From NCBI GenBank assembly GCA_964459725.1, contig CAYWNT010000001.1, forward strand, positions 91,529 to 155,528: a stretch of 64,000 nucleotides of DNA, written 5' to 3'. How positions within the stretch are numbered: the first letter of the stretch is position 1; the number at the start of each line of letters is the position of its first letter. The position numbers and the translations under genes were made by a program. The DNA is from an uncultured Gammaproteobacteria bacterium (GTDB lineage Bacteria; Patescibacteriota; Patescibacteriia; Patescibacteriales; UBA12075). Shown here piece by piece: positions 2,413 to 57,713 of the stretch. Below the pieces are notes generated by a model, which was not told the DNA's origin, did no database searches, and worked only from the letters and a program-made list of their open reading frames with translations.

Positions 2413-5400
2413 ATGCTTGTCAGATTTTTAAACAAAAATAGAATCGCATGGGTTTTTTTGGTTTTATTTTTAATATTTTCCATTGTTTTTTCTGCTAATT
2501 TTAAGGAAAATATTGAAATAGTAGGTGCTTTTGAAACAGATAGAATCAATGTTTACCCAGGAGAATTCTCAATTGAGAAAGAAAGACAGATTCCAGAATG
2601 GAAAAATATAGATAATTCGTTTGTTCAGGATTTATCAGAGGTTGAACACATAAGTAAATTCGACCAAAATAATTCTGCAAATATCATTATTGGCTTAGAA
2701 TTGCCACCAGAAGATGAAGAGTCTGGTGGTGGCAGTTCTGAGTCTTTTTTTGATGAAGAAAATAGTGATAATCAAGAATCAGAAAGCAGCGAACAGACTG
2801 GAGATGAAGAAACCGCAACTACTTCAGTGGAGGGTGGTGAGATAGAGGACGAGGAAGATGTGGAAGTAAATATTTCTACCAGCACAAATGATTCTTCGGG
2901 GGAAGAAGAAATAGCAGATACAGATGTAGTTGAGGAGCCAGTTATCACTGAAGAAGCTCCAGAAGAGACTGTTGAAGAAGAGATTGGTTCATCCACTGAG
3001 GAAGCAGAAGAGGATAATGACGTTTCAGTTTTTGATAAGGCAATTAGAGGATTTAAGTCTGTTATTGGATATACTAAATCATATTTTAGGGATTTTAGAT
3101 CAGCTCTAGCGCAAGACGCTACCTCTACCGAAGAGAGTGAAAATAATTTTGAAGGAGAAGAAATTGTAGAGGAGGAAATAATTATAGTGGATGAATATTC
3201 AAGCACTACTACCACTCAAAATGTAACTGCTACCAGCTCTGCTGACCTCGATTTGGTCCTGGACGAGAATGAGGCCACCTCTACCGTGCTTAACGAGGAA
3301 GAGGGGCAAGAAGTTGGGCCAACTGAAAGTAGGAATGAGCAAAAACTCAGCTCTAGTATTATTTATTCTGATTTTGGTCTACCAGAGGATTATGAAGAAA
3401 AGGAAATCTCCAATGTTCAATTGAGAGTATCAATGGCGGCCATGAGTAATAAGCTAGGTGATGAATTGAATTTTGCCTTTAGGACTGATTCCGAAGGAGA
3501 GTGGCTGGATATTAGTAATTATGATATCTACACTCCAATTTCCAATTTAAATAATAGCGGTTATTACCTGATCGGCATGCCTATTTTTGAGGGATGGAAT
3601 GATATTGACGATCTCCAGGTTAGGGTGAGCTACAAAAGTGAAGACAGGGAGCAGCATAAGCAAAAAACTAGTATCTATGTTGATGCCATGTGGTTGGAAG
3701 TAGATTCAATTTTGCCTAATGAGGTGATTTTTGAAGAAGAGGAAGAAGACGCGGAGCTCTTGGAGCTTAAAAAGAGATTTTCACTTGATTTATTGTCTGA
3801 AAAATTGAGTTTTGAACCTGGCGAAAGTCCTAAGTTCAAATTTAAGTTCAAGGAAAACAGAGGATTAATTAGAAGAATTGGCGCAGGCATGATGAGTGTC
3901 GTTCGAGATGAGTACTCTGATATTGAGATAGTGGCACATTTAATGAGAGGGAAGGAAGAAGTTAGAAGCTTTGATTTGAGTACGAATTATTTAAATGATG
4001 GAGAGTTTGAGCTTGATTTTGGCTCTGAGATGCGAGAGTTTCAGCCCGGAGAATATAGGCTGGAAATAGAGATCAAGGAAAATAACCTAACCCTTGGTCG
4101 CATCTTAGACTTCTCGCAAGACTTTAGTTGGGGGGTACTGGCAATCAATCCAAACAAAACAATTTATAATCTAGGTGAAACTGCTTATCTGCAAATGGCA
4201 GTTTTGGATGATCTGGGGCACACTATTTGTAACGCTGATCTCTCTTTGGAAATAATAAGTCCTGACGGATCTGTAGTTACACAAACAACAGAAGGGGAAC
4301 TCGTTAGAAATCCAGAATGTGGACCTGATAATGTCATTGACACTCCTGATTATTATAGTTTCTACGAGACTGAAGAAGAGGGAGAGTACACCATGCGTCT
4401 GGTAGCGACTACTACTACTGGAACCAAAGAGATATCGGACAAGTTTGAAGTGAGAGCCAATGTTCCATTTGAAATAGAAAGAGTAGGGTCGACCAGAATT
4501 TACCCTTGGGCAAACTATGAAATGCGTTTTAATATCAAGGTGAATGAGGATTATCAAGGTGAGTTTGTCGAATATGTGCCTAGATCATTTATGTTTGTTT
4601 ACAGAGATGGGGCTCGGGAAATTATCAATGGGGACACTAAGGAGCTTCACTGGGATGTAGATTGGAAAGCAGGCGAGATTCATAGCCTTCGATATATATT
4701 TGATGCTCCAAATATTTCTCCGGAATTCTTCTTGTTAGGTCCTGCGTCTCTGCCAGCTTCCGGGTTTGAGGAGATTCGAAAATGGCAGATAGCAAGTGAC
4801 GCCGAAATTGACTATGTGATAGCTGAGGCTATTGGGATTGATGCTGGAACTACTGATACCGTGAACTGGACTGAGGCAGTCAATGCTGGAGCAGGGTCAT
4901 TTACAGGTGGAGACAAGTATTTTGTATATGTAACTGCCGGATTCCTTGGTTCAGCTACAGCTGTTAACACTGATTTTGAAGTAAGATACGGCGCAACTCC
5001 TCAGTACACCGGTCTAGTTGAGGCTCCTGGATCAAATAGTGATGATTTTCAGATCTCATGGTTTGATGTCTATGACCAGCCTGGATCACCAACTGATATC
5101 TCTGTTCACTATCGCACCAATTCAGGTCAGTCAAACGCTCTGCATGCCCAGGTAATAGCTATTAACTTGAGTGATTTAAATAGTAGTGACTGGAAGTACG
5201 CCAGCAATACAAGTCTGACTCAGCATACTACCGGCTTTGTTGATTTTGTAAATGTTACCTTAGATGCTGCAGACGGATCTAAGGATTGGCTAGTATTTGC
5301 CATGGAGGACGTGATTATAGATTCAGCCGGAGTAAATTATCAAGGTGAGATCTATGATGGATCAACTTCTTATATGGGGTATAGTATGGAGGGTGAAAAT

Positions 5401-8400
5401 ACTGCTGAACAGTTGCCTTATGTTTTGATGGCTCCGTTTGATGATGTGGCCCAAGATGCGGTATTTAGTTTTAGGGCAAGAGATGATGCAACCGGCATCA
5501 ATGATCATAATGGAAGTAAGATATTTGCTCTTAATTTAGATGCCTTTGAATCACATAAGACCTATTATGCGGACACTAATACTGCAATAGCGGCCAGTCC
5601 ATCATGGACTGAGATTGGTAACCTTAATTCTGGGGGAAATTATCAACCTTCTACCACGGGAAATCAGTTTATATTTGCTTCCTGGATTGATGATGCTGCT
5701 AGTGCTTCAGCCGGAACTAATGACAGATTGCAGGTGAATGGGTCTACAGTTCCAACAGGATGGGATTGGGCACAGGGTGGAGCAGTAAGTAGAACTACTC
5801 ATGATGGAAGTGATGAAAATTTATTCAACATCTCTGCTGTAGCCAGTATTCCTACCACAGGAAATCCAATTGATATGGACGCTACGGAAATTATCAGAAA
5901 TTCTCAAATTGCAGATGAGGTCAGTATGACTGTCTTCTCTACGGAGTTAGTTGGTCAGTTAGCCCCAACCGGGAATTTTAATTCAGTTGCTCAAAAAACA
6001 GATGGTTCAAAAATAGTTGATATTTCTATTGAGATAAATGATGCTAATTCAGATAACATAACGGCTAGGATAGACTATGCAACAGGCACTACTTGTAGTT
6101 TTGTCTCTCCCGGAGATCCTACCCTGGAAGAAGCAACTACTACAATCATAGAAGATTTTGGTGATGTTCATATTGATAATGAAAGCACTTATCAGGTCGG
6201 TACAACTAGTTATGAAATTATAACTACAAGCGGGTCAAATACGGTTAATTTTGACTGGAATGCATATTTAGATTTGCCAGGAATTGAGGGAAGTTATTGT
6301 GTGCAGTTAACCGCCAATGACGGAACAGTTGATCAGAGTCCGGTAGCTACTACAACTATTTATATAGACAATATAAACCCTACAGCTCCCGGGGTCTGGA
6401 CAGTTGAAAATATTTATTATGACGCTATAGAGTTTAATTTTGGTGCTACCTCAAGTGATACGAATTTTTCTGAGTATAGAATTTATTACAAGGAAGGTAC
6501 TTCCGGAGTAAGTCAGAGTGATAACTATTGGGGATCAAGTAATGATTCTAACTTAGGCTATGATGATTTCAATGGAGCAACTAGTACCCGAGTTGGCATA
6601 CTAAAGCCTGATACTGACTATGTATTTGCAGTTTACGGTGTAGATATTTATGGTAATGCTGCTAGCTCCTTAGAGCTTACTGTCAAAACTGGAACCGGTA
6701 GAGCTAATACCGTTGTTTTCCCAGCAGGAGTTTATTCAGCTGATGGCACTACTGGGCAAAATACGGATACTGATTATACATTTAATACTTTTAATTTTGA
6801 CTTAGTTGAGACTGGGGTAAAAATTGAAAATGCTTTTGTAATCTTCGAGGCGCAATTCGAAGCTTATGTAAATAACGCTAATCCTTATACTGGTTACTCA
6901 CTTTACTTTGATACTTGTGCAGAGCCTTGTACTGCTAATGCGGTTAGCGGAACGGATGCTGCTTCTACTACCGATACTACAACTTTGGCCAATAATGAAT
7001 CGGAGAGTAATCAAGGTAAGATGATTTTTGATGTAACTGAGGAGGCTCAAATGGCAAGTTACACTGGTGGTCAAATGGAGGCACAGGTCGGTTATAGAAT
7101 AAATAATGGTCTAACTGCTAACTCTATAAGTGCTGCCCGGGCCAGGTTGGTTGTTACCTATTCTTATCATCCTGATTCAGAGTCGCTGACCAAGACAGTT
7201 GTCTATCCGCTGGAGTCGACTGCAGCAGGGGATAGTGGTTCTAGACAGTCATCTCAGGCTATATGTACGGTTGATAATAATTGTCCTTTCTTTACTTACA
7301 ACATGGATATTCCGGAGTTTAGCTCTTCTCTTGCAGATTGGTTTAGCGTGACTGGTGTTAGGGATGGTAGTACTGATTCAAGGATTGACTTAAATATTGA
7401 AGGAAATGACAACCCAAGCTCAGTCTATGTCCATGAAGGAGCACTTGGAGGTCAGCAATCAACCTATCCAAATTTGATATTTGATGATACTCCAGGATTT
7501 ACTGAGAACACAGATCAAACATTAGAATATCATGTTTACACTGGAGGAACTACTTATTTGATGGGTGGAGAAGTTTATGATACTTATACGGCTTCAGCTA
7601 CAGCTCCAATTAAAACAAGAACTGTAGTTTTTCCTGTCGGAGTTTTGAATAACGGGATCACTACCGCCACATCTTCTGGAGGGGTAGATGTTTATTTCCC
7701 AGAAAACGGAACAACAAATGGGAATGTAGATATCAAGAGAGCTTGGTTCAGGGTTAAGACCAATAATAGAGTTGATGGCTCTCAGTACATGTATCTGAGA
7801 TCAAGAGTGGGAAGCACTGCCTCTTCATCAATGTATAGTTATAATTATAGTCCAGGAGGGTCAGTTATTAAGCCAGTCTTTGATATTTATCATGTGCTTG
7901 CTACTACCACATACAGCGAGCTAGATAACGCTAACGCCACAACTCCGGTAAAGGTAAATATTGATACTAGAAACAGTACGGTTAACAACGGAGGAACTTC
8001 AGTAGAGCTGGTGGTGACATACACTTACTCTTCAGAAGCTGAAGGATACCTAACATCACTTCTTGTAAATGGTGGACAAGTTGACAAGGAAACAAATACA
8101 GCTCTAGCTACTGGAACTACTGCTGCCTTAGTATTCCCTGAGGATGAAAGTAAGAGAACCTTGCTTGCTGCTGGCATGAATGCTAGTTACTTAATCAGCG
8201 ACGGAGATGGCGGGGTGCCGGTGGGTTATACCATAGATATTAATATGTCTACCACCACTCCAGTTTGTTCGGACATATTTGAGTCTCCAACTGATGGAAT
8301 CAATGCTTTTATTGAATACACCAAGGATGTAACAGCTGCGATCTCTAACGCTCACAATACAACTTATAACACTTGTTATTCTAATGACCAGGGCGGGGAT

Positions 8401-35874: not shown

Positions 35875-36019
35875 ATAAGGGAGATTGGCACCCCTTTAGA
35901 AAATAGAATATATTGAGGTGCCCCGACGCAAGGTCGGGGAAACTAGATGGAACCGCGGGAAAAAAATCTCGTTCTAGTAATTTAGGAACATTTTTTAAAT
36001 TGCTTGAACGAGTTTTTTT
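35875..36019 (+). promoter_or_regulatory. T-box riboswitch leader (glycine-specific by context) with terminator/antiterminator
   Basis: Stem III pairs ccccgac with gtcgggg (35921-35939). The antiterminator has actaga (35942-47) paired with tctagt (35973-78), a 7-nt bulge UGGAACC (35948-54), and cggga paired with tctcg. The competing terminator pairs ctcgttc (35968-74) with gaacgag (36006-12) and has T7 at 36013-19. A GGC-A sits in the loop of a small hairpin (aaggg/ccctt, 35877-35896). glyQS lies downstream. Confidence 0.75.
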
Positions 36020-36076: not shown

Positions 36077-37468
36077 ATGAAAAAAGAAAAAGATAATTTA
36101 ATGGAAAAAGTAGTCTCTCTTTGTAAGAGAAGAGGTTTTGTGTTTCCTTCTTCAGAGATTTATGAGGGATACGCTGCAGTTTACGATTATGGTCCTTATG
36201 GAGCTGAACTGGCAAACAATATAAAAGATTATTGGTGGAAGTCCATGGTTCATAAAAATGAAAATATCGTAGGCCTAGACTCCAGTATTTTTATGCATCC
36301 TAAGGTTTGGGAAGCCTCAGGTCATGTTGGAGGATTTTCTGATCCACTTTCAGAGTGTAAGAACTGTCACACTAGAAGCAGGGTTGACCACCTCTTGGAA
36401 GATATTGGTGTTTTTGCAGATGAGAAAATGACAGAAGACGAAATAAACAAGCTACTGACAGAGAATATGGAAAAGGTTAAGTGTCCAAAGTGTGGTCAAA
36501 GTGATTTTTCTTCAGCAAAGAGTTTTAACCTTTTAGTTAAGTCAAACCTTGGAAACTTTACCGGTGACTGGGAGAAGGACCCAACCTATCTTAGAGGAGA
36601 AACTTGTCAGGGAATATATATCAATTTCAAAAATGTTTTAGACTCAACCAGAATGAAAGTGCCTTTTGGTATCGCTCAGATTGGTAAAGCTTTTAGAAAT
36701 GAAATTACAGCAAGACAATTCATTTTCCGCAAAAGAGAGTTTGAACAAATGGAAATGCAGATGTTTGTCCACCCTGACAAGGAAATGGAAACCTATGAAG
36801 AATGGAGAGAAAAGAGATGGCAGTATTATTTAGATCTGGGATTAAAAGAAGAGAATCTAAGATGGCACGAACATGAGAATCTGGTTTTTTATGCCAAGGC
36901 AGCTTGGGATATTGAATATAATTTCCCTTTTGGATTTAAGGAGCTAGAGGGAGTTCATGCGAGAGGTGATTATGATCTCACTCAACATACAAAGTTTTCA
37001 GGAAAAGATTTAACCTATCGTGATCCCAAGACAAACGAAAAATTCACACCTCATGTGGTAGAAACATCTGTTGGAGTAGATAGGACATTTCTAGCGGTAA
37101 TTACTGACGCCTACACCGAAGAAAAACTAGAAGATGGGACCGAGAGACTAGTTATGAAATTTCCAAAAAACATCGCCCCGGTAAAAATCGCAGTTTTCCC
37201 ACTTCTCAAAAATAAACCTCAGCTAGTGGAAAAAGCAAAAGAAATCTTTGATTCACTTAAGGGTGATTTTATGTGCGAGTTTGATGACAACGGGAATGTT
37301 GGCAAGCGCTACAGAAGACAAGACGAGATTGGTACACCGTATTGCGTGACTATTGATTTCGACACAGTAGAGAAGGATGATACAGTGACGGTTAGAGACA
37401 GGGATACTATGGAGCAGGTTAGAGTGAAGGTAGAAGAGTTGGGCGCCTACTTTAAAGAAAAATTTTAA
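36077..37468 (+). CDS. glyQS: Glycine--tRNA ligase, dimeric (alpha2) type
   Basis: MEKVVSLCKRRGFVFPSSEIYEGYAAVYDYGPYGAELANNIKDYWWK is the typical GlyQS N-terminus. Length is 463 aa, with class II motifs (FRNEITARQFIFRKREFEQME). Confidence 0.9.
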   Translation: MKKEKDNLMEKVVSLCKRRGFVFPSSEIYEGYAAVYDYGPYGAELANNIKDYWWKSMVHKNENIVGLDSSIFMHPKVWEASGHVGGFSDPLSECKNCHTRSRVDHLLEDIGVFADEKMTEDEINKLLTENMEKVKCPKCGQSDFSSAKSFNLLVKSNLGNFTGDWEKDPTYLRGETCQGIYINFKNVLDSTRMKVPFGIAQIGKAFRNEITARQFIFRKREFEQMEMQMFVHPDKEMETYEEWREKRWQYYLDLGLKEENLRWHEHENLVFYAKAAWDIEYNFPFGFKELEGVHARGDYDLTQHTKFSGKDLTYRDPKTNEKFTPHVVETSVGVDRTFLAVITDAYTEEKLEDGTERLVMKFPKNIAPVKIAVFPLLKNKPQLVEKAKEIFDSLKGDFMCEFDDNGNVGKRYRRQDEIGTPYCVTIDFDTVEKDDTVTVRDRDTMEQVRVKVEELGAYFKEKF

Positions 37469-53170: not shown

Positions 53171-54034
53171 ATGTACAATATAATACCTTTGATATTAATA
53201 TTAGTTAGTTTGATCGTGATCATCACGATCGTTATGAAGAAGTTTACTATACTTGCGAATTTGGATTTGGATACTATTCAGTCAGAAAGAGAGGCTGAGT
53301 TCAAGGAACGAATTATCGGCAATAGAATAAAGAGGAATTTTTTTAAGTATTATTCTAGAGTAGTAAATATGGTGAAGCCGCTCATTTCAGCTGTGGCCAA
53401 TGTTTCTAAAACAATGCATGACAAGCTTATAAACTTCAAGGAAACTTACAATAAGGAAAAAATTGTTAGAGATGCTCCGAATGAGGAAGTGCATGTTGAT
53501 AAGCTGTTTTTGGAAATTGAAGAGTTGATAGCCAAGAATGAAACCGAGGAGGCAGAAAAGAAGTATATTGATATCATAGGAATTGATAGCAAGAACATCC
53601 AAGCCTTCAAGGGGCTTGGGAAGTTATATTTTGAAAAGAAGAATTACAACGAAGCTAGACAGACCTATAGCCATGTTCTTCGACTTATAGAAAAAGATTT
53701 AGCTAGTGTATATGCTGATGAAAACAGTGATGAGTATAATGAATTGAATAGCCAGCTGGCGAGTATTTATTTTGATTTAGCGGCAGTAGAAAAGGCAGCC
53801 GAAAATACAGACAAAGCTTTCGAGAGTATCAAAAAGGCAATAGACATTGAACCAAACAACCCAAGATATCTTGACACAAAATTAGAGTTAAGTATAATTA
53901 GTAAAAACAAGGAATTGGCTCTCGAGGTATACGAAAAACTAAAAAGCGTAAACCCTGATAATCAGAAATTAGAAGAGTTGAAAGAACAGATTGATAATAT
54001 ATCAGGAGAAAGCGAAATAGTTACTCCAGAATAA
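53171..54034 (+). CDS. Membrane-anchored TPR-repeat protein
   Basis: N-terminal TM segment (IIPLILILVSLIVIITIVM). TPR-like repeats include AFKGLGKLYFEKKNYNEARQTY and AFESIKKAIDIEPNNPRY. Confidence 0.65.
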   Translation: MYNIIPLILILVSLIVIITIVMKKFTILANLDLDTIQSEREAEFKERIIGNRIKRNFFKYYSRVVNMVKPLISAVANVSKTMHDKLINFKETYNKEKIVRDAPNEEVHVDKLFLEIEELIAKNETEEAEKKYIDIIGIDSKNIQAFKGLGKLYFEKKNYNEARQTYSHVLRLIEKDLASVYADENSDEYNELNSQLASIYFDLAAVEKAAENTDKAFESIKKAIDIEPNNPRYLDTKLELSIISKNKELALEVYEKLKSVNPDNQKLEELKEQIDNISGESEIVTPE

Positions 54035-54068
54035 GTAATCAATAAAAAAGCAGAGAATAAATTAAATC

Positions 54069-54091
54069 ATACTGCAAGAGCAGTATTTTTT
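54069..54091 (+). terminator. Rho-independent terminator
   Basis: atactgc pairs with gcagtat, followed by T6. Confidence 0.7.
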
Positions 54092-54106
54092 AATAAAGCC
54101 GTTGTA

Positions 54107-54320
54107 GACCGACATAAAAGTCGGGACTCCGACCGAAGCGTCGGAGCTCAACCCGAAGGATCCCCCTTGGGGGCGGTACCCACCCGAAAGTCCCGTTCGG
54201 TATGGGCGGGGAGCATCCCGAGTACTCGGGAGAAGGTGTCGTAATTTGTTGAATAAAATTAAAGTATCTAGCTTGCATTTCGAAGTTTCCTGTCTGTCGA
54301 CAGGCAGATAGCGTAGTAGT
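54107..54320 (+). other. GC-rich, hairpin-dense non-coding segment of unknown class
   Basis: Visibly GC-rich against AT-rich flanks. Hairpins include ccgac-ataaaa-gtcgg (54109-24), ctccgac-cgaagc-gtcggag (54127-46), cccc-cttg-gggg (54162-73), ccgaa-agtcccg-ttcgg (54184-200), tcccgag..ctcggga (54216-31) and ctgtctg-tcga-caggcag (54290-307). gaaagtcccg recurs at 54186 and 54507. Confidence 0.5.
54289..54307. repeat. Member of a short GC-rich palindrome family (CCTGYCTGYCGRCAGRCAGG-like)
   Basis: cctgtctgtcgacaggcag. Related copies are cctgtctgccg...caggcag (54469-54507, in the T-loop of the tRNA-Thr-like gene) and cctgcctgccggcagacagg (56336-56355, in the tRNA-Tyr fragment). Confidence 0.55.
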
Positions 54321-54392
<72 letters not shown>

Positions 54393-54535
54393 CAAAGGGT
54401 GTAACAATAGAGCACTTCCATGCGTGCCCCGTGTTTATCTACGGGGGTAAGGAAGGGGTCTCGGGTTCCCTGTCTGCCGATTTATGTGCCTGTAGGCGTA
54501 CAGGCAGAAAGTCCCGACAACGGCTCAATAAAAAT

Positions 54536-54558
54536 CATGGCTTTCGCCATGTTTTTTT
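54536..54558 (+). terminator. Rho-independent terminator after the tRNA-Thr locus
   Basis: catggc pairs with gccatg across the loop tttc, followed by T7. Confidence 0.75.
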
Positions 54559-54676
54559 ATTTAGAAAAAACAATATTTAATCATTTTCTTACTTGATTTT
54601 TATGTAGTAAAATGATAAATTTAGGACAAGATGAAATGTTTTTAGTTTAAGATTTTTATAGAATTGAAATAAAAAT

Positions 54677-54799
54677 ATGAAAAAGCATCATAAAGTTGGA
54701 AATAGACCAAGTAGGCCTGGCTATAGAACACCTTCTGATTTTAAGGCCAGAAAAACACACGAAGTTTCAAAGAGTAAAACAATTTCAAAAAATAAATAA
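54677..54799 (+). CDS. Possible 40-aa highly basic protein (MKKHHKVGNRPSRPGYRTPSDFKARKTHEVSKSKTISKNK)
   Basis: Hand-translated ORF. It has no clear RBS and lies directly upstream of the GNAT gene. Confidence 0.25.
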   Translation: MKKHHKVGNRPSRPGYRTPSDFKARKTHEVSKSKTISKNK

Positions 54800-54828
54800 T
54801 AGGATTAGGCAAAGAGGGAGGGGTGAGA

Positions 54829-55392
54829 ATGGATGAAGACACAGTGTTCTTGAGTGGAGAAAGTGTTGATCTTTGTGTTCCGGATAAGGAGCTACACGCA
54901 GATTGTTGCCTTAAGTGGATCAACGATCCAGAAGTGAGCTCAATGCTTCTTATTGGAGTATTTCCAATTTCTGGAATGGTGGAGAAGGAATGGCTAAAAG
55001 TCATTTTGGAAGATAAAGATGACATTATGTTGATTGTTGTGACCAGGGAGGGTAAGCCAATCGGCACAGTCGGTCTTTACGAAATTGATTTTACAAACAG
55101 AATGGCAAAAATTAACGTATTGATCGGAGAAAAAGATGAGTGGGGCAGGGGCTATGGTAGTGAAGCAGAGAGATTATTAATTGAGTTTGCTTTTAGCTCC
55201 TTAAAATTGTTGAGAATAACTAGGTTGTATTGTGAGCAAAATATAGCCAGTAAGAGAGTGGGAGAAAAAAATGGTTTCACAGAAGAGGGTTTGTTACGAG
55301 GTCAATTCTGTGTAGCAGGAGAGTATGTAAATATCATGCGATCTTCAATATTCAAAAATGAATTTGAAGTCCAAAAAAGCTATTGCGGATAA
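54829..55392 (+). CDS. GNAT family N-acetyltransferase (RimJ/RimL-like)
   Basis: IGEKDEWGRGYGSEAERLLIEFAF and GEKNGFTEEGLLR. I prefer ATG 54829 (RBS AGAGGGAGGGG) over the track's GTG 54823. Confidence 0.75.
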   Translation: MDEDTVFLSGESVDLCVPDKELHADCCLKWINDPEVSSMLLIGVFPISGMVEKEWLKVILEDKDDIMLIVVTREGKPIGTVGLYEIDFTNRMAKINVLIGEKDEWGRGYGSEAERLLIEFAFSSLKLLRITRLYCEQNIASKRVGEKNGFTEEGLLRGQFCVAGEYVNIMRSSIFKNEFEVQKSYCG

Positions 55393-55408
55393 TGCGGTAG
55401 CTTTTTTT
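55379..55408 (+). terminator. Terminator overlapping the GNAT stop codon; a second hairpin plus T-run lies at 55465-55487
   Basis: gctattgc pairs with gcggtagc (two G-U pairs), followed by T7. Further on, aaatcc pairs with ggattt, followed by T7. Confidence 0.6.
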
Positions 55409-55498
55409 CTTTGTTTCTTAAAGTCTTGATTATTTTTTATGATTGTGTTATTCTCAATAATAAGAAATCCTTTGAGGGGATTTTTTTATGATTCTAAT

Positions 55499-55596
55499 GG
55501 GTCGATACTCAAGCGGTCAATCACCGCTTATAGCGGGACAAGCGAGGGCAGACTGCCACCGCCTTCGGCGGGGTGTCGTCTGGGCGACATAAATCT
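55499..55596 (+). pseudogene. tRNA-Tyr-like 5' two-thirds carrying two hairpin insertions
   Basis: gggtcgatactcaagcggtcaa[22-nt insert, 55521-42]cgagggcagactg[34-nt insert, 55556-89]taaatct. Outside the inserts it is identical to the intact tRNA-Tyr at 55906. It diverges after position ~41. Confidence 0.6.
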
Positions 55597-55606
55597 ACGT
55601 TATATT

Positions 55607-55852
55607 ATGTATAAGGCTTATATTTTATATAGTGAACAATTTGATCGATATTATATTGGCCATACAGATAATTTGGAAAATAGATTGAATAGGCACAATA
55701 AAGGATATGTAAAATCAACGAAGCCTTATAGGCCGTGGAAGGTGGTGCACACAGAAGAGTTTGAAACAAAACAGGAAGCATACAAAAGAGAGTTTCAAAT
55801 TAAATCATATAAAAAAGGAGCGGCATTTAAAAAATTAGTAACACAAATATAA
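55607..55852 (+). CDS. Small GIY-YIG nuclease family protein (81 aa)
   Basis: MYKAYILYSEQFDRYYIGHTDNLENRLNRHNKG...EAYKREFQIKSYKK carries the GIY / YIG / R / E pattern. The track ORF (55439-) extends upstream only by reading through the tRNA-like segment. Confidence 0.8.
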   Translation: MYKAYILYSEQFDRYYIGHTDNLENRLNRHNKGYVKSTKPYRPWKVVHTEEFETKQEAYKREFQIKSYKKGAAFKKLVTQI

Positions 55853-55905
55853 TATAAATTTTAAATAGTTAGTGACGATTCGCTAACTGTTGAGAGTTTA
55901 TAGCT

Positions 55906-55988
55906 GGGTCGATACTCAAGCGGTCAACGAGGGCAGACTGTAAATCTGCTGGCTTCGGCCTACGTAGGTTCGAGTCCTACTCGGCCCA
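55906..55988 (+). tRNA. tRNA-Tyr (anticodon GTA at 55940-55942), long variable arm
   Basis: The cloverleaf reads gggtcga ta ctc aagcggtcaac gag g gcaga ctgtaaa tctgc tggcttcggcctac gtagg ttcgagt cctac tcggccc a. No CCA is encoded. Confidence 0.9.
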
Positions 55989-55997
55989 CTAAAAAAA

Positions 55998-56024
55998 AGA
56001 GCACTGAAGTTTCAGTGCTCTTTT
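55998..56024 (+). terminator. Terminator after tRNA-Tyr
   Basis: An A8 run precedes agagcactgaa paired with ttcagtgctct, followed by tttt. Confidence 0.7.
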
Positions 56025-56075
56025 GTATTTAAAAATTTATTTTTATACCGATAAAGCTCTCTATTCGCAGCGGAT

Positions 56076-56164
56076 CAGACTGCCACCGCCTTTGGCGGGG
56101 TCCCGCAGCGGCGGGATAAATCTGCTGGCTTCGGCCTACGTAGGTTCGAGTCCTACTCGGCCCA
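56076..56164 (+). pseudogene. tRNA-Tyr-like 3' two-thirds with a 34-nt anticodon-loop insertion
   Basis: cagactg[34-nt insert, 56083-116]taaatctgctggcttcggcctacgtaggttcgagtcctactcggccca. Outside the insert it is identical to the intact gene. There is no intact 5' acceptor strand upstream, only a degenerate ccgata...gctc. Confidence 0.6.
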
Positions 56165-56204
56165 CATACAAAAGAACACTGTGAATGCAGTGTTTTTTTG
56201 TATG
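56165..56204 (+). terminator. Terminator after the tRNA-Tyr-like 3' copy
   Basis: catacaaaagaacactg pairs with cagtgtttttttgtatg (core aacactg/cagtgtt), followed by a T-run. Confidence 0.7.
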
Positions 56205-56227
56205 TTGTTGAGTAGATTGCTTGAACC
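56203..56227. repeat. Diverged inverted copy of the tRNA-Tyr 3' half
   Basis: tgttgttgagtagattgcttgaacc compares with the reverse complement of the tRNA T-arm/acceptor, tgggccgagtaggactcgaacc. Confidence 0.4.
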
Positions 56228-56327
56228 TAGTTGACCAAAGTGAATCATCAATCAATCATCAATCAAAGTAATAACAAGGGAAACAAATACGAGGTAATAC
56301 CATAATGATCGAAAAATGCTCTGCTTT

Positions 56328-56367
56328 TTCGAGTCCCTGCCTGCCGGCAGACAGGCTACTCGGCCCA
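56328..56367 (+). pseudogene. tRNA-Tyr 3'-end fragment (T-loop to discriminator) interrupted by a 20-nt palindrome
   Basis: ttcgagtc[cctgcctgccggcagacagg]ctactcggccca. A hairpin plus T-rich tract follows at 56381-56409. Confidence 0.6.
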
Positions 56368-56445
56368 CAACCAATATAAAACGGTACAATTTGTGCTGTT
56401 TAATTTTGTTTAATATTAGCAATAGTTATACAGTAAAGGATTTTA

Positions 56446-56474
56446 TTGACTTTTTTTATTTTTTGTAGTACTAT
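56446..56474 (+). promoter_or_regulatory. Candidate promoter of rpmG
   Basis: TTGACT at 56446-51, a 17-nt spacer, then TACTAT at 56469-74. A hairpin plus T6 (aacagac..gcctgtt, ~56486-56515) lies between it and the start codon. Confidence 0.4.
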
Positions 56475-56536
56475 GAACTCAACAAGGATAACAGACAGAT
56501 TATGCCTGTTTTTTATTATTAAGATTTGAAAATACT

Positions 56537-56692
56537 ATGTCTCAGGACAATATGATCAAGTTTGAGTGTACTGAATGTAAAAGGGTTAATTATTTTTCTA
56601 GAAAAAATAAAAAAACTTTGAAAGAGAGACTCAATCTCAAAAAATATTGTAAGTTTTGCAAAAAACATACAACACATAAAGAAACAAAATAG
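56537..56692 (+). CDS. rpmG: 50S ribosomal protein L33
   Basis: Hand-translated as [51 protein letters not shown], which matches the canonical L33 pattern with both CxxC pairs. It is below the track cutoff. Confidence 0.85.
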
Positions 56693-56729
56693 AAAAGTTT
56701 TGTTTCTTTTTTGTTAAATAATTCTAGTT

Positions 56730-57137
56730 ATGAATATTTATTCAAAAATTTTTCTAGTATTAATTGGTGTTTTGTTTATAAATGGATGTTCGGTTATGGA
56801 AAGTCTTAGAAATGCTGACCAGAAAATGGGAGACATGTATGAGGATTTTCAGGACAGCAGTGAGGAAAATGCGAATGACTTTATCAAGGATACAAAAGAA
56901 AATATTGGAGAAGTGGTTGAACTGTCAGAGGAGCAGAAAGGTAAAGTCGATAAATGGCTGGAAGGAAATGATTTCAATAAATTCGGTGATGCCCTCGGCA
57001 CAATGTATGCTGGCGGTACGCCGCTTTTCAACGAGGCAACAGGAGAAATTAAGGATAGGTTTGAATATATAATGGAAAAAATTCCAGATATTTTAGAAAA
57101 GATAAAGGAGATAGAATTGGAAGAATTTGCAGAATAA
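56730..57137 (+). CDS. Hypothetical lipoprotein
   Basis: Signal peptide with a lipobox (LIGVLFINGC). The mature part is acidic. Confidence 0.65.
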   Translation: MNIYSKIFLVLIGVLFINGCSVMESLRNADQKMGDMYEDFQDSSEENANDFIKDTKENIGEVVELSEEQKGKVDKWLEGNDFNKFGDALGTMYAGGTPLFNEATGEIKDRFEYIMEKIPDILEKIKEIELEEFAE

Positions 57138-57150
57138 AAATTAAGCAGAA

Positions 57151-57221
57151 GCGGGCGTGGTATAATGGTAGTACAAGAGTTTCCAAAACTTTTAGCGGGG
57201 GTTCGATTCCCTCCGCCCGTG
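57151..57221 (+). tRNA. tRNA-Trp (anticodon CCA at 57183-57185)
   Basis: The cloverleaf reads gcgggcg tg gtat aatggta gtac a agagt ttccaaa acttt tagc ggggg ttcgatt ccctc cgcccgt g. The acceptor stem has a G1-U72 pair. No CCA is encoded. Confidence 0.8.
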
Positions 57222-57629
57222 CAAAATATGAACAGGACTTTTTGTCCTGTTTTTATTTTGTGCGAGTGGAGCTTGAATCGAACACCTTTGAGAAATGTAA
57301 CATGAAATGATAAGTATAAAAACATGAATAAATTTTGCATTTCAAAATGAATATGTTTACCTGATTGAAAACGCCTTGGCTTTTCGATTCCCTCCGCCCG
57401 TGCAAAAATAAACAAGGTCACAAATTGTGATCTTGTTTATTTTTGTATGGGCTGATGCAGAATCGAATCCCGTTGATTATAGAATTTAATATAGGAAAAC
57501 TTTATTAAATAAAGTAAATTTTTAGAACGAAATAATAGTGAGCTGTATGATGGTGCTGGGGCTTGAACCCTTCGATTCCCTCCGCCCGTGCAAATATAAA
57601 ACAGTCCTGAGTACTCAGGGATGTTTTTT
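57202..57629 (+). repeat. Array of three copies of the tRNA-Trp 3' end, each with its own terminator, interleaved with inverted 3'-half-like copies
   Basis: ttcgattccctccgcccgtgcaaa occurs at 57202-225 (within the tRNA), 57383-406 and 57571-594, a spacing of 181 and 188 nt. Terminators lie at 57231-58, 57411-44 and 57602-29. Inverted diverged copies are tgtgcgagtggagcttgaatcgaacacc (57259-86), tgtatgggctgatgcagaatcgaatccc (57444-71) and tgtatgatggtgctggggcttgaaccc (57544-70). Confidence 0.75.
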
Positions 57630-57713
57630 ATATATTAAAGATTTGTTAACAATAATTAATAAATAATGGTATAATATAAATATAACTTAAATACATATTA
57701 TAATATAAAATTT

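Follow-up and report, generated by a model that had tools for sequence, protein, structure and literature searches.

A covarying double hairpin at the junctions of a putative homing-type cassette in a Patescibacteria tRNA-Tyr gene

A 64,000-nucleotide stretch of an uncultured bacterium placed in the Patescibacteriota by GTDB (GenBank assembly GCA_964459725.1, contig CAYWNT010000001.1, positions 91,529 to 155,528; the whole stretch is called the window, and its coordinates are used throughout) contains a tRNA-Tyr gene that is split in the anticodon loop by a 0.56-kb segment, at each junction of which a 34-nt GC-rich double hairpin is found. This double hairpin is probably, though far from certainly, the junction module of a small mobile cassette of the homing type that invades tRNA genes and replaces part of the gene. 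The segment encodes an 81-aa GIY-YIG nuclease, and the tRNA-Tyr function of the host is kept via an uninterrupted copy inside the cassette.

The split tRNA-Tyr gene and its hairpins

The cassette is situated at position 34/35 of the resident tRNA-Tyr gene and consists, in this order, of a double hairpin, a 7-nt tRNA stub, the nuclease gene, a complete tRNA-Tyr with a terminator, another 7-nt stub and a second double hairpin. Both halves of the old gene are left outside as remnants, each abutting one hairpin, and direct repeats of 48 nt flank the cassette. The features are as follows, raw tRNA position 35 being the canonical G34, since ARAGORN puts the anticodon at raw position 35.

55499-55520, + strand: displaced 5' remnant of tRNA-Tyr, tRNA bases 1-22, 100% identical to 55906-55927 of the intact gene
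55521-55542, + strand: single GC hairpin of 22 nt within the D loop of the 5' remnant, core caccgcttatagcggg, interrupting the alignment to the intact tRNA
55543-55555, + strand: continuation of the 5' remnant, raw bases 23-35, the last of which is the anticodon G34, 100% match to the intact gene
55556-55589, + strand: left double-hairpin module (HP1), 34 nt, ccaccgccttcggcgggg followed by tgtcgtctgggcgaca, 45.9 bits with the covariance model
55590-55596, + strand: 7-nt tRNA-Tyr stub taaatct (positions 35-41) on the inner side of HP1, from direct-repeat comparison
55607-55852, + strand: GIY-YIG nuclease gene, 81 aa, catalytic domain only, PF01541 with E = 1.3e-15
55906-55989, + strand: intact, uninterrupted tRNA-Tyr (GUA), the working copy between the remnants, from ARAGORN and with 54 bits in Rfam
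56076-56082, + strand: 7-nt tRNA-Tyr stub cagactg (positions 28-34) on the inner side of HP2, from direct-repeat comparison
56083-56116, + strand: right double-hairpin module (HP2), 34 nt, ccaccgcctttggcgggg followed by tcccgcagcggcggga, 50.1 bits with the covariance model
56117-56165, + strand: displaced 3' remnant comprising raw bases 36-84 of tRNA-Tyr, 100% identical to the intact gene
56328-56368, + strand: older outer 3' remnant of tRNA-Tyr (T arm and acceptor end) with a 20-nt GC hairpin inside (about 56337-56355) and its own terminator at 56379-56401

The two inserts had been described in an earlier note on this DNA, and their sequences, lengths and coordinates are confirmed, as is their placement directly after G34 in both partial copies, where the flanking bases permit no shift. 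That note missed the D-loop hairpin, the third tRNA-Tyr remnant and the nuclease open reading frame (ORF) between the copies. The D-loop hairpin folds at -6.9 kcal/mol (z = -3.4) and matches the covariance model weakly; analogous D-loop hairpins occur at loci L005, L133, L144, L158 and L175 (L numbers denote loci compared with the window). Stubs of 7-13 nt similar to those of the window are found in L009, L133, L135 and L148. The nuclease ORF starts ten bases past the end of the HP1 stub, and the sequence between them is unrelated to tRNA. The intact tRNA-Tyr is preceded by a promoter-like site at 55826-55853 and followed by a terminator at 55995-56024, while the 3' remnant has a diverged terminator of its own at about 56170-56200 (a terminator repeat, 76% identity).

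The two inserts fold alike, at -16.3 and -20.7 kcal/mol with identical dot-bracket structures; as had been claimed, hairpin 1 is conserved and hairpin 2 is divergent yet paired (tgtcg/cgaca versus tcccgc/gcggga). The pattern of hairpin 1 is found in the 64 kb only at the two junctions, with 0 sites expected from shuffles, and nothing elsewhere in the window scores comparably with the covariance model, which was built from relatives. Homologous inserts, for which the earlier note had advised a search, are present in many related genomes and metagenomes. In an alignment of 26 of them, each from a different genome, 96.7% of the cells pair and 6 of the 14 pairs have undergone double-sided changes (pair 21-36, for example, is CG in 12, GC in 12 and UA in 2). 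The observed covariation score is reached by none of 500 shuffles, partners slid out of register pair in only 40-59%, and the bulged A of hairpin 1 is nearly invariant. The difference in hairpin 2 between the two window copies is part of this family-wide compensatory variation.

Of the proposal that the insert is a functional structured element, the part concerning a conserved, structure-constrained sequence that does not arise by chance stands, while its intron-like side does not. Nor is the element confined to position 34/35. In tRNA-Ser, members of the same hairpin family occupy position 35/36 or, in other remnants, the D loop; in the tRNA-Tyr of a syntenic relative the hairpin is at the junction of the variable arm and T stem, and many copies lie outside any tRNA. 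In the window and in all homologues the element starts with CCACC right after the tRNA break (55556-55560 and 56083-56087), which recalls the addition of CCA or CCACCA to tRNA-like 3' ends; the resemblance is probably coincidental, because solo copies begin likewise.

Covariation in both hairpins and a location inside the anticodon loop would suit a small intron or intron-like RNA element, either excised from the tRNA-Tyr precursor or joining split tRNA halves. This explanation has been rejected as very unlikely, since the copies bearing the hairpin are truncated: the 5' copy ends 7 nt past the insert, the 3' copy begins 7 nt before it, and excision in silico, even with boundaries shifted by up to 2 nt, restores a complete tRNA in 0 of 165 related instances. 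An uninterrupted isoacceptor gene is always adjacent, so that splicing is not needed. The two copies are direct repeats, unlike the complementary leaders of the split tRNAs of Nanoarchaeum, and the same element is present in DNA other than tRNA genes. With group I introns the exon usually ends in U at the 5' splice site, whereas the base before the insert is G34. As the earlier note had also pointed out, 34 nt is too small for a group I intron; the insert has no ribozyme core and matches no Rfam family, group I introns included. Rfam at gathering thresholds detects only the three tRNAs in the whole window, and at E <= 1 the region 54000-57700 yields these tRNAs and microRNA/sRNA noise, with neither a group I intron nor a ribozyme. 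The group I introns that lie within tRNA genes of Patescibacteria share the host phylum and the anticodon-loop location, including 34/35 and 35/36, but they are spliced ribozymes of 184-894 nt that interrupt complete genes (PMC13011429), whereas the present element is found in truncated copies. A tempting misreading of the insert as a new class of mini-introns at anticodon position 34/35 is thereby corrected.

Recurrence in other genomes and filled, empty and replaced alleles

The architecture recurs in dozens of genomes, at tRNA-Tyr, Ser, Thr, Arg, Gly and Lys. One genome per species was scanned with an alignment of the nuclease family, a narrower alignment being used because the broader one was too divergent, and 203 relatives were obtained; the counts below rest on the best 80 of the 203 together with the window, 81 loci chosen by the protein alone. 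The 80 are almost all from Patescibacteria (many named groups), with a few from Ignavibacteria, Bacteroidetes, Omnitrophota and KSB1. An intact tRNA is found within 130 nt of the nuclease gene in 72 of the 81 loci (63 downstream, 9 upstream), where about 1-2% would be expected by chance, as estimated from roughly 45 tRNA genes per Mb. The downstream tRNAs comprise 31 for Tyr, 29 for Ser and one each for Thr, Gly and Lys. In most of the loci the same tRNA is also present as a partial 5' copy that breaks off at the anticodon or D loop, and many have one or more 3' remnants, with a maximum of 12 tandem copies in L190. These last, at 2951-3919 of L190, downstream of a nuclease-tRNA-Tyr pair, are perfect copies with an 86-nt period, consisting of the last 23 bases of tRNA-Tyr and a spacer, and look like a recent segmental amplification.

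In about 48 of 62 loci a match to the hairpin model lies upstream of the nuclease gene, with 8-64 nt (mostly 14-33 nt) between its end and the start codon, a count that includes some minus-strand matches, mainly of palindromic hairpins of the D-loop type; most of the other loci carry variant hairpins. The order of the parts varies. One syntenic relative (L009) has tRNA-Tyr(1-34), a 34-nt hairpin, a stub, the GIY-YIG gene and an intact tRNA-Tyr, while another (L004) has an intact tRNA-Tyr, the GIY-YIG gene, a stub, a hairpin of the same family and a 3' remnant broken at the variable-arm/T-stem junction; the tRNA-Thr of L004 shows the theme again, with another hairpin of 16 nt and a further GIY-YIG gene. 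L005, from an unrelated genome, has tRNA-Ser(UGA) as its target, and identical hairpins follow G35 at both junctions. In L176 the tRNA is upstream of the nuclease gene and the hairpin comes after the gene, against a 3' remnant. The constant feature is a hairpin of fixed orientation at the tRNA break point beside the displaced piece, and not its place relative to the ORF.

That the window locus is an artefact of metagenome assembly, with repeats collapsed or chimerically joined, is extremely improbable. Related contigs do often end or have N gaps exactly at such loci, but the window locus is 100% identical over 3.7 kb in three independent metagenome assemblies, and more than 60 unrelated assemblies show this architecture too, among them the complete chromosomes CP064992.1 and CP181398.1. 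The interruptions at tRNA and remnant loci (contig ends in L211 and L214; N runs in L004 at 3687-3785, in L210 at 5968-6086, and in L136 and L138) evidently occur because the repeats defeat short-read assembly, and nuclease-tRNA cassettes are probably under-represented in metagenome-assembled genomes.

The match of the window nuclease to PF01541 covers residues 4-69, and no other Pfam or NCBIfam match is obtained. The residues Y5, Y16, G18, R26 and E62 do not vary among the 19 homologues of the family alignment. Among solved structures, the nearest are the UPF0213 proteins 1ywl and 1zg2, which are domain-only, and neither these nor Pfam or NCBIfam reveal a separate DNA-binding domain in the 81 aa. 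The homologues share 45-74% identity, and their source labels, where given, are mostly 'Patescibacteria'. In a neighbour-joining tree compared with tRNA type and hairpin subtype, the nucleases group according to tRNA type, but with so short a protein, and with host phylogeny as a confounder, the tree does not decide between a cassette and an independently spreading hairpin, the two main explanations weighed below. The hairpin itself can be translated as PPPxAGSR…, and some gene calls run through it (proteins P0003, P0006 and P0016), giving rise to false tblastn 'nuclease' matches.

A presence/absence polymorphism at one site in close relatives, as is characteristic of a homing-endonuclease element, is provided by L210 and L009. 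They are 96% identical over 3 kb upstream and their tRNA-Tyr genes are 100% identical, but the empty L210 has a tRNA-Thr, one base and the tRNA-Tyr, without the nuclease gene, hairpin and half-tRNA of the filled L009. L212 is likewise empty. Between tRNA-Thr and tRNA-Tyr, an ORF of the 23S_rRNA_IVP family (PF05635) is present both in L009 (3521-3868), with the nuclease cassette, and in L212 (6031-6387), without it; this family has also been found in insertions of rRNA genes in the Candidate Phyla Radiation (CPR) (PMC11270868).

An exchange of alleles is seen at the tRNA-Thr of the window, which is one of its three uninterrupted tRNA genes according to ARAGORN and Rfam (tRNA-Thr 54321-54393, tRNA-Tyr 55906-55989 and tRNA-Trp 57151-57222).

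54098-54527, + strand: outer tRNA-Thr with many GC hairpins, enclosing an intact tRNA-Thr of a different allele; 5' end 54098-54107, hairpins 54108-54245, 3' part 54408-54527

The 3' part has a 24-nt hairpin (54423-54446) after the anticodon G and a 40-nt insert in the T loop (54469-54508). The former can indeed be placed at 34/35, as had been suggested for this copy, with an ambiguity of one G. This nesting contains no nuclease gene. The outer gene has the stems GCCGTTG/CAACGGC (acceptor) and TCGGG/CCCGA (T), and the inner intact gene GCCATCG/CGATGGC and AGCGG/CCGCT; the differences are compensatory, and the outer acceptor stem matches that of the resident tRNA-Thr of relatives. Since the inner allele differs and the outer one resembles the resident gene of relatives, the working tRNA-Thr is an imported allele.

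Proposed mechanism and competing explanations

The architecture and its recurrence, the covariation, the existence of both filled and empty alleles and the exchange of an allele are observed; how the cassette moves is inferred. By analogy with SegB of phage T4 and with homing-endonuclease genes that stand free and come with a replacement piece of the target gene, the nuclease would cut an uninterrupted tRNA gene, in a loop or close to one. A filled allele would then be copied to mend the break, the tRNA halves providing the homology. Nested and tandem remnants would result when cutting recurs and repair uses the wrong template. The hairpin may act by disrupting target and homology: the displaced half would no longer offer a site to the nuclease, and the homology between remnant and working copy, which could otherwise delete the cassette, would be interrupted. 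It may also be a recognition handle by which a nuclease without a DNA-binding domain finds its own element.

Several points weigh against a cassette of this kind. Cleavage by the nuclease is a prediction, and the tRNA inside the cassette has the sequence of the presumed target, so that it should be cut too. In I-TevI and the Seg proteins a separate DNA-binding domain confers target specificity; the present protein is a bare catalytic domain of 81 aa in which no such domain is recognisable, and therefore sequence-specific homing is not assured. The canonical hairpin is absent at a few nuclease-tRNA loci (L190, L207 and L209). The left and right copies of hairpin 2 in the window differ in 10 of 16 bases, which does not agree with simple duplication from one event; a crossover in hairpin 1, or else two invasions in succession, would account for it. 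Extra hairpins are often found in D or T loops of remnants and look like secondary insertions, as do hairpin units nested inside the loop of hairpin 1 (L135 at 2413-2483; L173 at 2411-2487 and 3214-3270); some loops of hairpin 2 at such loci are enlarged by AT-rich inserts.

The distribution of the hairpin outside tRNA genes also tells against a cassette. A DNA-pattern scan of metagenomes detects at least 120 loci, about a third of which are chance matches in GC-rich DNA without hairpin 2. Among the matches listed there are 59 strict copies, of which only 17 are within 80 nt of a GIY-YIG gene, several are at 3' remnants beside a tRNA, and more than 30 are solo, outside the context of tRNA or nuclease. 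Therefore the hairpin can exist, and presumably spread, by itself. A few solo hairpins (L015, L040 and L070) are apparently situated inside lysine- and glutamate-rich coding-like sequence and are possibly in-frame insertions like the Rickettsia palindromic elements. An apparent occurrence of nuclease genes within 1 kb of solo hairpins was for the most part an artefact and was set aside: of nine loci re-examined, eight are gene calls over-extended at the N-terminus that contain translated hairpin, while the ninth (L073) has a real nuclease gene on the opposite strand. The pattern finds no match in the viral contigs searched.

These observations give weight to a different explanation, possible but distinctly less probable than the cassette, in which the hairpin is a miniature palindromic repeat in its own right, similar to mitochondrial GC clusters, double-hairpin elements, repetitive extragenic palindromic (REP) elements and Rickettsia palindromic elements. 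It would insert at G^AAA or G^TAAA, often in loops, and accumulate in dead tRNA remnants, insertions in working tRNAs being lethal and hence never seen. The nuclease cassette would make the remnants and the hairpin would arrive later, its link to the nuclease being indirect or due to mobilisation in trans. Besides the many solo copies, this explanation is favoured by the flanks, which among the matches listed end on the left in G in about 45 of 58 copies and begin on the right with AAA, AAG or TAA. This preference for G^(T)AAA, which is accompanied by no clear target-site duplication, fits the anticodon loops of tRNA-Ser (UUGAAA, UGGAAA), tRNA-Tyr (CUGUAAA) and tRNA-Thr-UGU, and the insertion point shifts from 34/35 in tRNA-Tyr to 35/36 in tRNA-Ser because the flank motif shifts. 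Several different hairpins per remnant, at the D, anticodon and T loops, hairpins nested within hairpin loops, left and right copies that differ in hairpin 2 (in the window and L157) and inner stubs as short as insertion into a slightly longer remnant would leave are also in its favour. Conservation of structure with compensatory changes in the stems, as expected of palindromic repeats, is observed. The flanks close into a stem in 36% versus 23% in shuffled pairings (= maximum of 200 shuffles), a weak enrichment that is not relied on.

On the other hand, an independent repeat does not readily explain why the hairpin is close to obligatory immediately upstream of the nuclease gene, at the roughly 48 of 62 loci mentioned above and as variants in most others, why it never changes its orientation with respect to the tRNA, and why the same hairpin family accompanies related nucleases on different tRNAs. 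Only two copies are present in the 64-kb window, both at cassette junctions, despite the many G^AAA sites expected, and this is unlike the expectation for a randomly dispersing repeat. The left and right copies are identical, including loops, in L142, L145 and L162, and the filled allele of the 96%-identical pair L009/L210 already has the hairpin.

Integrase-mediated integration into a tRNA gene, which would make the repeats attachment-site scars and the hairpin the recombination core, is improbable. In its favour are the 48-nt direct repeats that flank the cassette, and a circle that integrates by crossover in hairpin 1 would explain a shared hairpin 1 with a differing hairpin 2. The tRNA-Trp of the window, moreover, has two 3' remnants of the kind left by integrases, and in L004 a large serine recombinase is encoded beside tRNA-Trp remnants. 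However, no recombinase gene is found in or beside the window cassette, where the only ORF within 55556-56116 is that of the GIY-YIG protein, nor in the cassettes in the gene tables of four related loci, and the only conserved cassette gene is the nuclease. A target that already carried the hairpin would, furthermore, be a dead copy of an essential single-copy gene.

In an extension of the cassette reading, double hairpin and 81-aa GIY-YIG domain might together constitute a new kind of bacterial mobile element, in which a structure-guided minimal nuclease without a DNA-binding domain acts on its own hairpin, with the nearly invariant bulged A, and on the hairpin loops of tRNA genes; the missing tRNA half would be carried as compensation, and solo hairpins would be non-autonomous derivatives. 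This extension is speculative and, taken as a whole, rather unlikely.

Relation to known systems and further observations

The closest parallel to the proposed cassette is SegB of phages T4 and T6, a free-standing GIY-YIG homing endonuclease of a tRNA gene cluster that cuts within tRNA genes; the breaks lead to recombination-dependent inheritance or amplification of a segment that carries tRNA-Tyr together with the nuclease gene, some of the copies being truncated (PMC2330249, PMC13096335). A GIY-YIG gene beside tRNA genes and truncated tRNA copies are common to both systems. SegB, however, is a phage protein with a C-terminal DNA-binding part, encoded between genes, whereas the window protein is a catalytic domain from a cellular (Patescibacteria) genome, and its cassette is inside a tRNA gene. 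The conserved GC-rich double hairpin at the junction is not reported for SegB.

In Allomyces mitochondria, a free-standing GIY-YIG ORF at atp6 reportedly brings a replacement for part of its target, the displaced part becoming a pseudogene. Such replacement-carrying homing genes follow the same logic as the cassette, since the target is split, the missing part is supplied and the displaced piece is left as a remnant. Their targets, though, are protein genes of organelles with no obligatory hairpin at the junction, while those here are bacterial tRNA genes.

Double-hairpin elements are also said to occur in Allomyces, and GC-rich palindromes to flank mitochondrial tRNA genes in Neurospora. The GC clusters of yeast mitochondria are likewise GC-rich mobile palindromes (PMC4478555). 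These organellar palindromes resemble the present hairpin in being short and GC-rich within AT-rich genomes, in their loop and compensatory changes, in their short preferred target and in the occurrence of solo, merged and nested copies. They have no assigned enzyme, whereas the repeat here belongs to bacteria and is closely associated with a GIY-YIG gene and with the break points of tRNAs.

In the rRNA genes of the CPR, insertions encoding GIY-YIG proteins have been described that are neither group I nor group II introns and are mostly located at the tops or bases of stem-loops (PMC11270868). Lineage, nuclease superfamily and the targeting of structured-RNA genes are the same as here. The host rRNA genes are presumably functional, whereas here the interrupted tRNA copy is dead and a substitute comes with the cassette; that report describes neither tRNA cases nor a hairpin module. 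A search of the literature for a prior description yielded analogues only, and no account of GIY-YIG/tRNA/hairpin cassettes in Patescibacteria. Related phenomena are known, but the literature searched does not describe the combination, common among Patescibacteria, of a minimal GIY-YIG gene with a replacement tRNA and, at tRNA loops, a covarying double hairpin.

If the cassette reading is true, Patescibacteria carry widespread selfish cassettes that target tRNA genes, the most conserved genes of the cell, and spare the host by supplying a replacement half or a whole tRNA. This would explain the partial tRNA copies, hairpins, tandem remnants and assembly breaks at tRNA loci, and annotation pipelines should expect pseudo-tRNAs beside real ones. 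It would also offer a route for horizontal replacement of tRNA alleles, as at the tRNA-Thr of the window. A very small nuclease together with a defined, structured 34-nt DNA or RNA element would be a tractable system for studying how a bare GIY-YIG domain finds its target.

Two further places in the window, and one in a relative, deserve mention. The tRNA-Trp gene is followed downstream by its two 3' remnants (T arm and acceptor end; 57383-57403 and 57571-57592), each with a diverged terminator of its own and without hairpin insert or nuclease gene. The large serine recombinase gene of L004, at 5782-7107 beside tRNA-Trp remnants and GC hairpins, has no counterpart in the window. At 35880-35990 a GC-rich hairpin (gccccgacgcaaggtcgggg) with no Rfam match is located in the untranslated leader of a 463-aa ORF (36077-37468) and could be an unrecognised regulatory leader.

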